Shown here piece after piece: positions 33,820 to 45,409 of a DNA stretch of 64,000 bases. Origin of the DNA: Kiritimatiellia bacterium (GTDB lineage Bacteria > Verrucomicrobiota > Kiritimatiellia > CAIKKV01); contig JAWOJA010000007.1 in NCBI GenBank assembly GCA_046484345.1, positions 11,206 to 75,205 of the forward strand, given 5' to 3'. A program made the translations under genes and the position numbers. How positions within the stretch are numbered: position 1 is the first letter of the stretch; each line of letters begins with the position of its first letter. The notes under the pieces are model-generated. The model was given only the letters and a program-made list of their open reading frames with translations. It made no database searches and was not told where the DNA came from.

Positions 33820-33908
33820 GATGGGGTTCTCCGGAAGGTGATTTCATACCCTTACAGTATGCGTCCGCCATGGGGGCTGTCAATTCGGGATATCCCTATT
33901 GGGGGTGT

Positions 33909-34007
33909 CTTAATCGTAATCTTAATCGTAATCCCTTCCTGCTCGGCCGTACCTCAAACAGCCAGGGGCGCAGCAAGAGTTGGATTGAGATTAAGATTAC
34001 GATTAGG
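33909..34007. promoter_or_regulatory. Large AT-rich inverted repeat between the ClpX-like gene and uvrA; candidate repressor operator
   Basis: Arm 1 is cttaatcgtaatcttaatcgtaatccc at 33909-33935. Arm 2 is agattaagattacgattagg at 33988-34007. The arms share a 17-nt perfect reverse-complement match, and arm 2 abuts the uvrA -35. Confidence 0.5.
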
Positions 34008-34025
34008 AGTAAGAGTAAGCCTGAC

Positions 34026-34078: not shown

Positions 34079-39514
<5,436 letters not shown>

Positions 39515-39607
39515 TCCAAGCCTTGCGCGAAGCATGGAGGGCGGCGCGCTGTCGCCGCCGCCGCATGGGATTGTCTCGGTTGATGGTTTCCGATACGCCC
39601 GCGAAGG

Positions 39608-39653
39608 TGGTGGGCAGTACAGGAATCGAACCTGTAACATCCAGCGTGTAAAG
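39608..39653 (-). pseudogene. 46-nt fragment of tRNA-Val (anticodon loop through CCA), inverted relative to the intact tRNA-Val at 44497; candidate att-site remnant
   Basis: The reverse complement of 39608-39653 equals ctttacacgctggatgttacaggttcgattcctgtactgcccacca, identical to the 3' 46 nt of the tRNA at 44497-44572. Similarity ends abruptly at the anticodon-stem/loop junction. Confidence 0.8.
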
Positions 39654-40051
39654 GTATTCAAGCTGTTTTCGTAAGTGCCACAATAAGAAGTTGTTGTGGC
39701 TATAAGCCCTTGAAAACACAATTTTTAAGGCGATCCAGATCGATCCGCCACGATAACAGGCGATCAAGTGAGAAACCAAGTGTCATGCGGTGTGTCATGC
39801 ACTTTGTTAAAAAGCATTTTATAGGGACAGGAAATGCGCTCTTATGATTGAGATTCTCCTGATATATCCACTGGACCTTAACAGGCGAAATCCTACCCTT
39901 ATCGCTTTACTCTATAATATTACTTTAAAGGATGTTGACTGAATGCCCTGTTGAGTCCAACATTGAAGAAGCTCGTTTTTGAGAAATTTCTCTTTGTCAA
40001 ACAAGACCCGCAAAGTCCAGAGGGGAACGAGACACCGAAAGGAGGCTACAC

Positions 40052-40273
40052 ATGGGCGACTGGTCAGACTACTTCGAGCAATTCCCCGAGGAGAATCCCG
40101 GCAACTACGATAAGAACGGCCAATTCGACCCGCACGGGGTTCTCCGGAAAGAGCGGGCAACCCAGCAACTTGCCCAAAGGCGTTTGACCGAAGTGCAACT
40201 GGCGAACGCAACGGCAACCCAACCGGTGACGCAAGTTGACACAGGAATATCCCAACACCCGCGTCCACGGTAG
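40052..40273 (+). CDS. Small (73 aa) hydrophilic hypothetical protein
   Basis: Strong RBS AAAGGAGG 7 nt before the ATG. Its stop codon lies inside REP-like hairpin copy 1. Confidence 0.45.
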   Translation: MGDWSDYFEQFPEENPGNYDKNGQFDPHGVLRKERATQQLAQRRLTEVQLANATATQPVTQVDTGISQHPRPR

Positions 40274-40301
40274 CCTCGCAAGCTCGGCACCGTGACGCGG
40301 G
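40258..40301 (+). repeat. REP-like imperfect palindromic repeat, copy 1 (core cacggtagcctcgcaagctcggcaccgtg)
   Basis: A 13-14 bp stem with one bulge (cccgcgtccacggt / accgtgacgcggg). Contains a GTAG tetranucleotide. The 29-nt core is repeated at 41699-41727. Confidence 0.6.
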
Positions 40302-40320
40302 ACGTTCGAATATAATAAGA

Positions 40321-41064
40321 ATGATAAAAACCATGACAGACATCCGTAAGTTTTGTGGATGGCTAATGCTGGTCTTGGTGATCGGCGAATTTGTATTCTT
40401 TGCCAACAGTTGGCTTCGATATTGCCCGCCAACCGAAGCACTCCAATTTGCTTTCAGCGGCGCGTGGTTTAGGGACAAATTCCCGTATGGCGGTGCAGGT
40501 TTCGCCTTGGATAAGCCGACGATAGGAAAATTATTCTTATGGACCTCAGTTTTGACCTGCCTCGCCTGCACAATAATATTGCTGCTACATACTGTCGTAG
40601 AACGCAATCACCGCGTGGGGTGGCGGTGCGCGAAAGCAAGTGCGGCTTTTCTTATTGCTTTTGTCTTGGTTGAGTTCCTCGTCCCAACCTTTTTTCTTGT
40701 TCAGTATGTTTTTTCCATGGGTGTGACGATTCGTCGGTTCCTGGGGCTTTGTTTGTGTTGTGGTTTTTGGTTCTCTCTTCCGTCAATCATATTCTGGATC
40801 AGGAAGACGGGGCCATCGCTGATAGATTGGAAACGTAATCCTCTTGTTTTAGCGCTCGCCTGCTCTATTGTTATTCCTACTTACTATTTGATCCTCATAC
40901 TGCAACCATACGAATGTCGCCATTGGGGAACAGTAAACACAATGTTCTTACTTGCATGGCTAATGCTGGTTGCTCCAATACTCTGCGTCATGTGGCTAAA
41001 CTCACGGGTCAAGACTAATGTCACCGAACCAGCGGTTGCGACTAACCGCAAGAGCCGCAATTGA
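40321..41064 (+). CDS. Hypothetical polytopic membrane protein (about 6 TM), low-GC
   Basis: Six predicted hydrophobic helices. No recognisable catalytic motif. ATGA overlap with the next ORF. Confidence 0.45.
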   Translation: MIKTMTDIRKFCGWLMLVLVIGEFVFFANSWLRYCPPTEALQFAFSGAWFRDKFPYGGAGFALDKPTIGKLFLWTSVLTCLACTIILLLHTVVERNHRVGWRCAKASAAFLIAFVLVEFLVPTFFLVQYVFSMGVTIRRFLGLCLCCGFWFSLPSIIFWIRKTGPSLIDWKRNPLVLALACSIVIPTYYLILILQPYECRHWGTVNTMFLLAWLMLVAPILCVMWLNSRVKTNVTEPAVATNRKSRN

Positions 41065-41681
41065 ACCTAGTCATTCAGGCAGTGGCCGCACAGGCCAGTC
41101 GTTCGGCAGGCAAACATCACATGACAAAACATCGCATCGTATTCATTGGCGCATGGATAGTGCTCATATTAGCTCTTTTCGCGTTCCCGGGGTTCGAGGC
41201 ACGAGGTATCGCGAGTGGTCTTGTCATTGGCTGGTGGCCTTTCCTGTTCCTCGGACCCCTGGTCGCAAATTCACAGAACGGGGAGGGAATCGCATATCTC
41301 ATTGCCTTCATAACGAGCGGGACAATAGTTGGATTTTGTGCATGGGTTATGGACAGAGCTGAATTGACGAAAAAGGCCTGGCTGGTGTTACTGTTGTCGA
41401 TCATAGGAGGAGCCGCCGTTATCTACGTCTTGACCGATTACAGTTTTGATGATTGGAAAAGATCTCCCGCTGTGTCGGCTGCAATGGAGTCACCAGAATT
41501 GAGCTACGAACCCACAGGGGGGGAGTTTAACGAGTCAATTGTGATACCGCAATTGCTGGCCGGTGGCATGTGGGGTCTATATGTGGCTACAACCTTGAGT
41601 TTCTTTTATTCAATAATCCTCTTGAGGATACTTCGCTTGAAGCAGATGCAGGCGGCGGCTGACTCACAACATGAAACATGA
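41061..41681 (+). CDS. Hypothetical polytopic membrane protein (about 5 TM), low-GC; alternative start at 41121
   Basis: Hydrophobic helices. Translationally coupled to the upstream membrane protein. REP-like copy 2 lies 12 nt after its stop. Confidence 0.45.
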   Translation: MNLVIQAVAAQASRSAGKHHMTKHRIVFIGAWIVLILALFAFPGFEARGIASGLVIGWWPFLFLGPLVANSQNGEGIAYLIAFITSGTIVGFCAWVMDRAELTKKAWLVLLLSIIGGAAVIYVLTDYSFDDWKRSPAVSAAMESPELSYEPTGGEFNESIVIPQLLAGGMWGLYVATTLSFFYSIILLRILRLKQMQAAADSQHET

Positions 41682-41692
41682 AGCCGAACACT

Positions 41693-41730
41693 GCGGCGCA
41701 CGGTAGCCTCGCAAGCTCGGCGCCGTGCCT
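41693..41730 (+). repeat. REP-like palindromic repeat, copy 2 (core cacggtagcctcgcaagctcggcgccgtg)
   Basis: 28/29 identity with the copy-1 core; the flanks are unrelated. Confidence 0.6.
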
Positions 41731-41943
41731 CGAAGAGGCATTGGGGTCACGTCTATAAATTCTAATTTCATAAATTAGGGACAAATAGCCTTCTCATGCG
41801 GAGCATCCGCTTTCCGAAGGCTGAGTAGCTCCCGTTGTCGTTGAACGGGGCAACCGAGTACCAGAGATCCGACTCCTTCGTCGTCCGGATCACGGTGCCC
41901 GGCACGGACTGCACTTCCTTCATCAACGTGTCCGATTCTCGCT

Positions 41944-44496: not shown

Positions 44497-44572
44497 GGGC
44501 AGTTAGCTCAATTGGCAGAGCGCCAGCTTTACACGCTGGATGTTACAGGTTCGATTCCTGTACTGCCCACCA
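44497..44572 (+). tRNA. tRNA-Val (anticodon TAC)
   Basis: 76-nt cloverleaf: acceptor GGGCAGT/ACTGCCC, D-arm GCTC...GAGC, anticodon loop TTTACAC, T-arm ACAGGTTCGATTCCTGT, 3' CCA encoded. Confidence 0.9.
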
Positions 44573-44886
44573 TCATCTATCCTGTCCGCTATCCGCTATC
44601 CGCCGGGCAATCGATGTGAAACGGGAGCCGGATGCTAATTTTGGGAGTAGGGGCAGCCACAAAGCCATTTATCGAGTCACTTGGCTTATTTATTATTGTT
44701 AGGACTGATTTCAAGATTCGGTATCGTAACATCCGCAATGCCGGATTCCAGCATAAACGCATACATTCATACGCCTCATTTCCTTCGGCCGAAGGAGTCG
44801 TAAACCGATCAAATCCATAAACCCGTTTTACGATGACCATTTTCTCGGTATCAGTTTGTCGTTTGTCGGGACTTGACCCCTTTCGG

Positions 44887-44921
44887 AAAAAAGCCCGCAA
44901 AGAGGGTGCTTTGCGGGCTTT
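44887..44921 (-). terminator. Rho-independent terminator downstream of the XRE gene
   Basis: On the minus strand reads AAAGCCCGCAAAG-caccct-CTTTGCGGGCTTTTTT: a GC-rich stem followed by a U-run. Confidence 0.6.
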
Positions 44922-44939
44922 CAGGAATGGGAAAACGAA

Positions 44940-45194
44940 TCAACCGCGTTTCTTGCCGGCCTTGCCGGTGCCGATGAGCTTCAGCCCCTTCGTGGCATCG
45001 ATGCCGAGGGCTTCGCAGAAGCGGACATACTCCAGCACGTCCAGGCGGCGTTCTCCGGTTTCATTCTTGCTCACCCAGGAGGGCGGCATTTTGAGGGTCT
45101 TGGCCAAGGTCCGAAGCGTGATCTTCTGGGAGGTCCGCGCATTCCGCAACCAGGCGAGCAACTCGGCAAACTGCTTTATTTGTTTCGTTTTCAT
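44940..45194 (-). CDS. XRE-family helix-turn-helix transcriptional regulator (Cro/CI-like)
   Basis: An 84-aa HTH_XRE domain (LRTLAKTLKMPPSWVSKNETGERRL). Lies in an AT-rich segment between two tRNA genes. Confidence 0.7.
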   Translation of the reverse strand: MKTKQIKQFAELLAWLRNARTSQKITLRTLAKTLKMPPSWVSKNETGERRLDVLEYVRFCEALGIDATKGLKLIGTGKAGKKRG

Positions 45195-45208
45195 GCTGTA
45201 TAGAGTAC

Positions 45209-45221
45209 CTGTTTTGAACAG
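45209..45221. promoter_or_regulatory. Small inverted repeat CTGTT-ttg-AACAG 15 nt upstream of the XRE start; candidate autoregulatory operator
   Basis: Perfect 5-bp arms with a 3-nt spacer inside TACCTGTTTTGAACAGTA. Confidence 0.3.
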
Positions 45222-45332
45222 TAATACAATGCTGATATTTTAAGGTTTTTAGACCCCGGGATTCATGTTTTGCCCGATAAACAGGTTTGCTTTGATTTTG
45301 GCGGGGCCGGTTGGTAAGATGGGCTTTCTTTA

Positions 45333-45409
45333 AGGGCCCATAGCTCAGTTGGTCAGAGCGGGAGACTCATAATCTCTTGGTCGCAGGTTCGAGCCCTGCT
45401 GGGCCCACC
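45333..45409 (+). tRNA. tRNA-Met (anticodon CAT; elongator, or tRNA-Ile2 if lysidinylated)
   Basis: 77-nt cloverleaf: acceptor GGGCCCA/TGGGCCC, anticodon loop CTCATAA, T-arm GCAGGTTCGAGCCCTGC, CCA encoded. Confidence 0.85.

Follow-up and report, generated by a model that had tools for sequence, protein, structure and literature searches.

The 64,000-nt stretch analysed here (hereafter the window; contig JAWOJA010000007.1 of a Kiritimatiellia bacterium) contains a 2.2-kb islet of low GC content (37–57% between positions 39600 and 41800) within DNA of about 65% GC. Three open reading frames (ORFs) lie in the islet on the + strand, ORF73, ORF247 and ORF206, of which the last two encode predicted membrane proteins. 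A gene for a 333-aa protein resembling RAYT, the tyrosine transposases associated with repetitive extragenic palindromes (REPs), follows on the − strand. Two copies of a 29-nt palindromic repeat are placed at the 3′ ends of ORF73 and ORF206, and an earlier sequence-only reading had described them as a REP-like element. We interpret the repeats as integron attC sites, one intact and one broken, that end stranded gene cassettes, with an estimated probability of about 0.85. The islet (39654–41800) is composed of three former cassettes in one orientation, namely ORF73 with an intact, ORF247 with an internally deleted and ORF206 with a truncated attC site, and the locus, which lies beside a tRNA-Val fragment in a Kiritimatiellia chromosome, is probably a CALIN (a cluster of attC sites lacking an integron integrase) in decay. 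Such attC elements are already a known kind of sequence and not a REP family.

A pattern search of the window allowing up to three mismatches found the 29-mer CACGGTAGCCTCGCAAGCTCGGC[A/G]CCGTG exactly twice, at 40266–40294 (copy 1) and 41699–41727 (copy 2), both on the + strand, and none of 100 dinucleotide-preserving shuffles yielded any match. The copies are direct repeats with 1433 nt of low-GC DNA between them and are identical at 28 of 29 positions, the sole difference being position 24 (A/G). This agrees with the sequence-only reading, which had reported two near-identical copies in low-GC DNA and had noted that the first overlaps the stop codon of ORF73 (TAG, 40271–40273). Its statement that the flanks are unrelated held for the right side, where similarity ends abruptly after CCGTG, and failed for the left side, where the two flanks are alike from 40251 and 41684 onward (AACAC...; 49 nt, 80% identity). 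Two of its values had to be revised. Copy 2 had been placed 12 nt after a stop codon, but the 29-mer begins 17 nt past the stop of ORF206 (41679–41681), and the AAC of the extended element begins 5 nt past it. The stem of copy 1, given as 13–14 bp with a single bulge, in fact comprises 19 bp with two extra bases.

An imperfect hairpin of 53 nt, termed attC-1, runs from AAC (40254–40256) to GTT (40304–40306) and has copy 1 at its centre. As single-stranded DNA (ssDNA), attC-1 is predicted to fold strongly on both strands (+ strand, −18.4 kcal/mol, z = −4.1; − strand, −19.9 kcal/mol, z = −4.7), and folds with RNA parameters were in agreement (−30.1 kcal/mol, z = −4.0; reverse strand, −39.9 kcal/mol). 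The two extra bases are at positions 16 and 23, counted with the 7-nt R″ box as positions 1–7, and correspond to G16 and T23 on the bottom strand; the extrahelical bases of attC aadA7 carry the same names (Nivina et al., PMC5027507). As it is the ORF-bearing strand that carries the extra bases on its 5′ arm, the + strand was taken as the top strand and the − strand as the predicted recombining bottom strand, as in canonical cassettes. An imperfect inverted repeat of about 50–150 nt that folds as ssDNA, the AAC/GTT triplets and extrahelical bases on the ″ arm, by which attC sites are recognised, are all found in attC-1. Moreover, 49 other distinct sites share the register of attC-1, and the arms of these sites covary.

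The other two sites of the islet have decayed. Copy 2 is the centre of attC-3, which keeps an R″ box (GCCGAAC, 41683–41689), the left arm and the tip, while the L′/R′ arm is gone after CCGTG. It does not form the long hairpin (ssDNA z = −1.1 and −1.9), and a complementary right arm, sought throughout the window, was absent. Similarly truncated family copies were found in the related loci L031, L065 and L075/L112. The small hairpin directly past the truncation point has no T-run after it and no terminator-like site in the scan. The third site, attC-2, follows ORF247. Compared with the hairpin after an ORF247 homologue in L139, attC-2 has lost about 21 nt from its centre and with them the ability to fold (z = 0.2 and 0.75); with moderate confidence, based on one pairwise alignment, 41064–41103 appears to be an internally deleted attC. 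The window thus holds three sites or remnants, each behind an ORF and all on the + strand, as expected of attC placement. The coordinates of the sites and of the surrounding features are collected in Table 1.

Table 1. Sites, cassettes and neighbouring features of the low-GC islet (window coordinates)
Feature	Position	Strand	Remark
attC-1, intact (top strand)	40254–40306	+	No other complete AAC..GTT hairpin lies outside coding DNA in the window
attC-1 R″ box, TCCCAAC	40250–40256	+	
attC-1 R′ box, GTTCGAA	40304–40310	+	
attC-1 extra bases, 5′ arm	C40265/6 (position 16), A40272 (position 23)	+	
attC-1 tip	Stem 40273–40275 / 40286–40288; loop 40276–40285	+	
attC-1 predicted crossover	Between G40304 and T40305		
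attC-2, remnant, AACCtAGTC ... GTCGTTCGG	41064–41103	+	Both ends align to the ends of the L139 attC
attC-3, truncated	41683–41727	+	28/29 identity to copy 1 and shared left flank
Cassette 1	40031–40303	+	Ribosome-binding region and ORF73 (40052–40273), running into attC-1
Cassette 2	40305–41103	+	ORF247, predicted membrane protein (40321–41064); annotated relative P0121 starts at 40333
Cassette 3	41104–41727	+	ORF206, predicted membrane protein (41061/41121–41681), from the ORF list
AT-rich non-coding leader	39654–40030		GC 0.37–0.47; absent from a related ORF73 cassette (L143 similarity starts at about 40031)
Inverted duplicate, 3′ half of tRNA-Val plus 5 nt	39603–39653	−	51 nt, 96% complementary to 44527–44577
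Small unrelated hairpin, GCCTC-GAA-GAGGC	41727–41739	+	Directly past the truncation point; seen in folds
RAYT-like ORF, 333 aa	41944–42945	−	Y1-HUH/DprA-like fusion by AlphaFold model

Related sites were identified through the 20-nt hairpin tip GGTAGCCTCGCAAGCTCGGC, which occurs at 55 loci among genomes (one per species) where about one would be expected by chance in a rough calculation. Nearly all of these loci are in metagenome-assembled genomes of Verrucomicrobiota, Lentisphaerae, Victivallales and Planctomycetota, and a few are in bins labelled otherwise; four sit in unrelated, non-palindromic contexts. The tip is found in two architectures, a long AAC...GTT hairpin (class B; seven genome loci and the window) and a three-hairpin cluster (class A, considered below). 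A 26-nt degenerate pattern specific to class B recovered 75 further metagenome loci. Among viral contigs, a scan picked up a single family site, on a contig of 5 kb, and one match that is unrelated. The hairpin type of the window recurs in about 100 other loci, mostly in genomes of the Planctomycetes–Verrucomicrobia–Chlamydiae (PVC) superphylum and in freshwater or groundwater metagenomes. Its consensus is (G/C)AAC - 1-2 nt - CGGCGT - bulged C/G - CA(T/C)GG - TA - GSC - TCGCAAGCTC - GSC - A - CC(A/G)TG - ACGCCG - 2-3 nt - GTT, with a 3-bp tip stem of GCC/GGC, GGC/GCC or CGC/GCG. Rfam searches, at the gathering threshold for the window and at E<=1 for six related loci, matched the element to no family and reported only tRNAs and chance matches.

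Of 84 distinct family sites, 67 have both triplets, AAC and GTT, and in 58 the register is exactly the same. In the 50 of these 58 that were aligned gap-free for the covariation analysis, the helix was 93.5% paired and 13 of 19 pairs had changed on both sides. None of 500 shuffles reached the observed values, and sliding the partners by 1–3 columns reduced pairing to 26–53%. The invariance of the loop was discarded as a sign of selection, since both collection scans had fixed the 10-nt loop and the invariance is an artefact of ascertainment. Hairpins of other tip types in the arrays described below share the same geometry: in 22 of 25 of them, compared by position count as their tips are too variable for MAFFT alignment, nucleotide 12 from AAC is bulged and nucleotides 17–19 read (G/C)(T/G)A.

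Family sites also occur in arrays. Two to three co-oriented sites, 234–770 nt apart, were found in L031 (three copies), L038, L056, L061, L088, L093, L117 and L128, and a simple scan of L085 (6.8 kb) and L071 (7.8 kb) showed about seven to eight co-oriented AAC...GTT hairpins of 48–80 nt with several tip types. Comparison of contigs revealed that cassettes are shuffled at GTT. Fifteen contig pairs share 84–726 nt upstream together with the site and then diverge 18–21 nt past the tip, base 18 being the last T of GTT. The 5′ edge of the shared cassette is again GTT|cgg, behind quite different hairpins in different contigs. Recombination at G|TT should leave just such a pattern, which bears out the suggestion of the sequence-only reading that the repeats are cassette-boundary or recombination sites. 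Upstream ORFs end close to the sites, with stops clustering 10–25 nt before AAC or inside the site. A small conserved peptide read through the element (M..NGVHGRLASSPP*) was rejected, as the upstream ATG(A) occurs in all three frames and mostly represents TGA stops of the preceding ORFs.

The families of ORF73 and ORF247 are themselves cassette genes. ORF73 has nine homologue clusters. Cassette 1 is carried by L143 at about 93% nucleotide identity from about 40031 to 40302, together with a decayed copy of the attC-1 site, and the similarity stops within 2 nt of GTT. In L145 and L146, ORF73 homologues lie in arrays of co-oriented small genes, with a further AAC...GTT hairpin behind them; the gene order in L147 is identical, and the homologue in L144 lies within such an array with no hairpin found after the gene before the contig end. 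ORF247 has 27 homologue clusters, and its homologue in the Kiritimatiellae contigs L139/L140 ends inside a different, 61-nt attC-like hairpin (L139:5650-5710). ORF206 gave no family match in Pfam or NCBIfam. As a separate observation, the L145–L147 arrays (e.g. L145:3492-6160) also carry Thoeris-like ThsB_TIR and ThsA_Macro genes as well as a SEFIR/TIR gene, which is consistent with defence genes travelling there as integron cassettes.

An integron integrase is linked to a class B site in one relative. In L110, the gene at 1390–2694 exceeds the cut-off of the NCBIfam model TIGR02249 "integron integrase" (289 bits against 265). The gene and the class B site are in divergent orientation, about 1 kb (listed ORF) to 1.6 kb (start of the TIGR02249 match) apart, and a cassette ORF that is divergent from the integrase ends 9 nt before the site. 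The IntI association was found in this relative only. A 314-aa Xer-like recombinase is encoded, divergently, about 0.5 kb from a family attC in L099:716-1660 and L069:1489-2349; it scored 167 bits against the cut-off of 265 and may be an integrase without the IntI-specific insertion, in an integron-like layout. In L112:2900-4300 and L075:680-890, two tandem tyrosine recombinase genes, which are not IntI by motif and tblastn strength, lie a few kb from a truncated family site whose right arm has been replaced, and they may represent another route by which sites get broken.

Several observations weigh against the attC interpretation. No integron integrase was found in the 64-kb window by a motif regular expression or by tblastn with IntI1, which served as a probe only and hit four site-bearing contigs. 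Only one of the four recombinases near sites passes the IntI cut-off, those of L099/L069 and L123 being below it. The central spacer of attC-1 (1–2 nt against 2–3 nt unpaired) is shorter than the unpaired 5–6 nt of classical attC sites. Beyond AAC/GTT, the R boxes fit RYYYAAC/GTTRRRY loosely, and the outer four pairs are 54% paired. Only one of the three sites in the window is intact, the left edge of cassette 1 shows no canonical G|TT junction, and the bias towards forward ORFs upstream of family sites is modest (36 vs 23). In addition, the scan for AAC..GTT hairpins was ad hoc and false in three of its four window hits, which fall in GC-rich coding DNA. The absence of an encoded integrase from the window is also the reason for the tentative CALIN assignment, since a CALIN is defined by at least two attC sites without an integrase nearby, and the 64 kb contain one intact and two degenerate sites and no integrase.

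From what is established for attC sites in general, the following course would be expected. The single-stranded bottom (−) strand would fold into the imperfect hairpin, and the tyrosine recombinase IntI, supplied in trans, would bind the R box (AAC/GTT) and the L box, with extrahelical bases 16 and 23 determining which strand is used. Cleavage would occur between A and C of the bottom-strand AAC, equivalent to G|TT on the top strand, and the cassette could then be exchanged with another attC or with attI. That IntI acts, or once acted, on the copies found here is inferred, as is the way in which the islet came in. Since only attC-1 keeps all the parts needed and the other two sites are dead, the cassettes here would be effectively fixed.

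The class A clusters concern the origin of the tip. About 45 copies were found in Verrucomicrobiota, with the tip in a different stem (ACCCAGGG...CCCTGGG) between caaccgcGTTgcggttg and gaatcccGTTgggattc. At 11 Verrucomicrobiota loci the cluster starts 20–70 nt past the stop of a gene for a 151-aa Y1_Tnp protein (PF01797, 74–79 bits; NCBIfam IS200/IS605, 54–56 bits with a cut-off of 55). L032 has another cluster, in direct orientation and with a different middle tip, immediately before the gene, and the two copies together make up an IS200-sized unit of about 740 nt; most cluster copies are solo. Class A is in its own right an undescribed multi-hairpin repeat family of Verrucomicrobiota with no Rfam match (L001–L055; e.g. 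L032:38-140, 676-778; L046:4188, 5231). It recalls the subterminal hairpins of IS200/IS605 elements and palindrome-associated transposable elements (PATEs), and the same 20–23-nt tip forms the middle hairpin of the three-hairpin cluster. The window copies differ from this layout in that the window has no class A H1/H3 hairpins and no IS200-like Y1 gene, and the Verrucomicrobiota clusters, conversely, lack the AAC/GTT arms. The class A middle hairpin and the class B attC are nevertheless alike over about 30 nt, with one covarying stem pair, which is far beyond chance. That the tip CCA-S-GG-TA-GCC-TCGCAAGCTC-GGC-A-CC-S-TG is shared by descent between the attC family and the class A middle hairpin seems unlikely to us, if worth considering. 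As to direction, we suspect from the sequences that the class A tip derived from attC, because (G/C)TA is general in attC sites but class A has no bulge. That the neighbouring Y1-HUH/DprA-like fusion acts on such hairpins would be a weaker corollary.

The proposal that the repeats are REPs, or REP-built mosaic elements (BIMEs), mobilised or bound by the adjacent RAYT-like protein, with the GTAG-bearing hairpin as its recognition site, can be judged from both the gene and the element. For the 333-aa protein, the NCBIfam model REP_Tyr_transpos gave 48 bits where the cut-off is 80, Pfam gave no match, and a PDB sequence search gave nothing significant. The AlphaFold model (mean confidence, pLDDT, 83.7) predicts an N-terminal Y1 HUH transposase fold and a C-terminal DprA-like domain (ShosA, DprA). 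The N-terminal half matches TnpA-REP 4er8 (root-mean-square deviation 2.4 Å) and the TnpA of IS608/ISDra2 (E ~1e-6), and the HUH and Tyr motifs are invariant. The whole protein has 785 homologues, largely from Kiritimatiellia, of which the 120 best are 52–82% identical over 73–98% of the query, and a 100% identical entry (P0001) comes from a Kiritimatiellia metagenome-assembled genome; exact-sequence look-ups of the protein, of P0001 and of ORF247 returned no record. The protein looks like a conserved family, possibly a domesticated ssDNA enzyme. The Y1 fold, the distance of only 217 nt between copy 2 and the gene's 3′ end, and the occurrence of the identical tip beside IS200-like Y1 transposase genes all speak for a functional tie. 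However, the 77–82% identical relatives sit among glycoside hydrolase and other unrelated genes, and no element lies near them (P0005, P0002) in three loci of 11.7–21 kb or in two contigs with only 0.3 kb downstream. Conversely, no homologue of an islet protein, or of the RAYT-like protein, is encoded in any of the 130 element-bearing loci. Because the gene's relatives lack the element and the loci with the element lack the gene, we conclude from these comparisons that the adjacency is probably coincidental.

The element itself also differs from REPs. In REPs, GTAG at the foot of the palindrome is the recognition and guide sequence (PMC8266576). REPtrons, in which REP/BIME elements accompany a RAYT gene (PMC8266576), resemble the locus in having ssDNA hairpins, a GTAG and an adjoining Y1 HUH gene, but their GTAG lies at the 5′ foot (0–2 nt), their copies are numerous and dispersed over intergenic regions, often in inverted pairs, and their gene is flanked by REPs, an association that relatives retain. 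Here GTAG (40270–40273) lies 13 bp up the 19-bp stem, spanning the extrahelical A and the base that opens the 3-bp tip stem; the two copies in 64 kb are direct and confined to one islet; no copy is on the gene's 5′ side; and the gene encodes a Y1/DprA-like fusion below the family cut-off. The same bulge and (G/C)(T/G)A in other hairpins make GTA part of the extrahelical-base geometry of attC sites, and a Y1 transposase does not explain cassette-exchange breakpoints at GTT. The REP/BIME assignment tied to the RAYT-like gene, as the sequence-only reading had it, is thus highly improbable. A role in the transcript, in which the hairpins serve as terminators, RNA stabilisers or translation attenuators at gene 3′ ends, would fit the strong RNA fold of copy 1 and the position of the sites directly after stop codons, 15–25 nt before the next ribosome-binding site; folded attC RNA is reported to influence the translation of downstream cassettes. 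Yet neither copy has a T-run or a terminator-like call, contrary to the earlier idea of dedicated terminators, and the count of such calls in the region equals shuffle expectation. The lack of an Rfam family and the better fold of the reverse strand also argue against it, and an RNA role leaves the invariant AAC/GTT and the recombination breakpoints unexplained. We regard this explanation as very unlikely and, at most, as a secondary effect of attC. The two direct copies flanking the 1433 nt could instead be ends or att duplications of a single 1.4-kb mobile unit, similar to a PATE or a miniature inverted-repeat transposable element and derived from the class A clusters, that carries the two membrane-protein genes, as the IS200-like gene of L032 lies between two direct hairpin clusters, one with the same 20-mer. 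Such a unit is hardly credible here, given the AAC..GTT arms of the window copies and the missing H1/H3 hairpins and IS200-like gene. Elsewhere each copy is linked to a different gene with neighbours swapped at GTT, L139 being a case of ORF247 and ORF206 found separately, and the interval itself holds a third, different attC remnant.

The cassettes lie in an islet with a tRNA fragment at its left edge. There, the inverted duplicate of the tRNA-Val 3′ half forms the boundary, and GC content falls from 0.65 to 0.37–0.47 immediately to its right; the counterpart (44527–44577) lies inside or just after tRNA-Val (44497–44572). A consensus scan found no promoter-like site on the + strand in the leader (39654–40030). 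A second low-GC patch lies past tRNA-Val (44578–45333), between it and tRNA-Met, and holds the gene for an 84-aa Xre-type helix-turn-helix protein (HTH_31/HTH_3; 44940–45194, −). The duplication and the two low-GC patches (39600–41800 and 44580–45330) suggest a tRNA-integrated islet that was later split by inversion. One inversion, if its ends lay near 41800 and 45333, would give back an islet of 2.9 kb between direct repeats at tRNA-Val. This inversion would also predict that the lost arm of copy 2 lies elsewhere in the window; it was not found, and nothing attC-like occurs in 44578–45333. A tRNA-targeting element may have carried the cassettes in, an integrase encoded elsewhere may have inserted them off-site (attG-type; bioRxiv 10.1101/2022.09.11.507474), or the locus may reflect the loss of an integron.

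Outside the islet, a long hairpin at 33908–34019 has arms built of short tandem repeats (TCTTAATCGTAATC...; 27-nt arms, 89% complementary) and lies just upstream of an 1811-aa, double-length UvrA-like gene (34079–39514). Similar repeat-built hairpins occur near family sites (L003:2365-2453, L029:4831-4991, L038:6893-6949 and L031:2208-2270).

Compared with described attC sites (59-base elements, such as the 60-nt attC aadA7 and the Vibrio repeats, VCRs), the family shares the imperfect hairpin (53 nt here) with invariant AAC...GTT ends, the extra bases at 16 and 23 of the ″ arm, a variable tip, the position directly after a promoterless ORF, co-oriented arrays, neighbours swapped exactly at GTT and, in one relative, a TIGR02249 integrase alongside. 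It differs in its very short, mostly paired central spacer, in R boxes that match the consensus loosely, and in a tip (GSC-TCGCAAGCTC-GSC) that recurs in contigs of Kiritimatiellia, Lentisphaerae, Victivallales, Planctomycetota and Verrucomicrobiota. For these sites, recombination is a prediction from sequence comparisons. The locus also resembles a CALIN (Cury et al. 2016, PMC4889954) in its co-oriented attC sites, cassettes without assigned function and the absence of intI nearby. CALIN cassettes have few database homologues, and such clusters have been read as a step between capture by integrons and fixation in the genome (PMC4889954). The islet differs in being linked to a tRNA and in that only one of three sites is intact, so that a program needing at least two might report a single attC or nothing.

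What appeared to be a REP family is therefore a clear and ordinary case of stranded, decaying integron cassettes in Kiritimatiellia, a little-studied class of the PVC group, with three successive states of attC loss, intact, internally deleted and truncated, side by side. The attC sequence family, which is widespread among PVC bacteria and metagenomes from fresh water and groundwater, could help to link cassettes to the hosts they come from. The sole point that goes beyond annotation is the identical tip in the IS200-like-associated clusters, which, if it reflects real exchange, would be a tangible clue to where attC sites come from. Two ssDNA-hairpin mobile systems of PVC bacteria would then exchange or co-opt hairpin modules. 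Either attC sites would seed the repeats of Y1 transposases, or abundant post-gene repeat hairpins would be recruited as new attC sites, which would bear on how integron cassettes arise.

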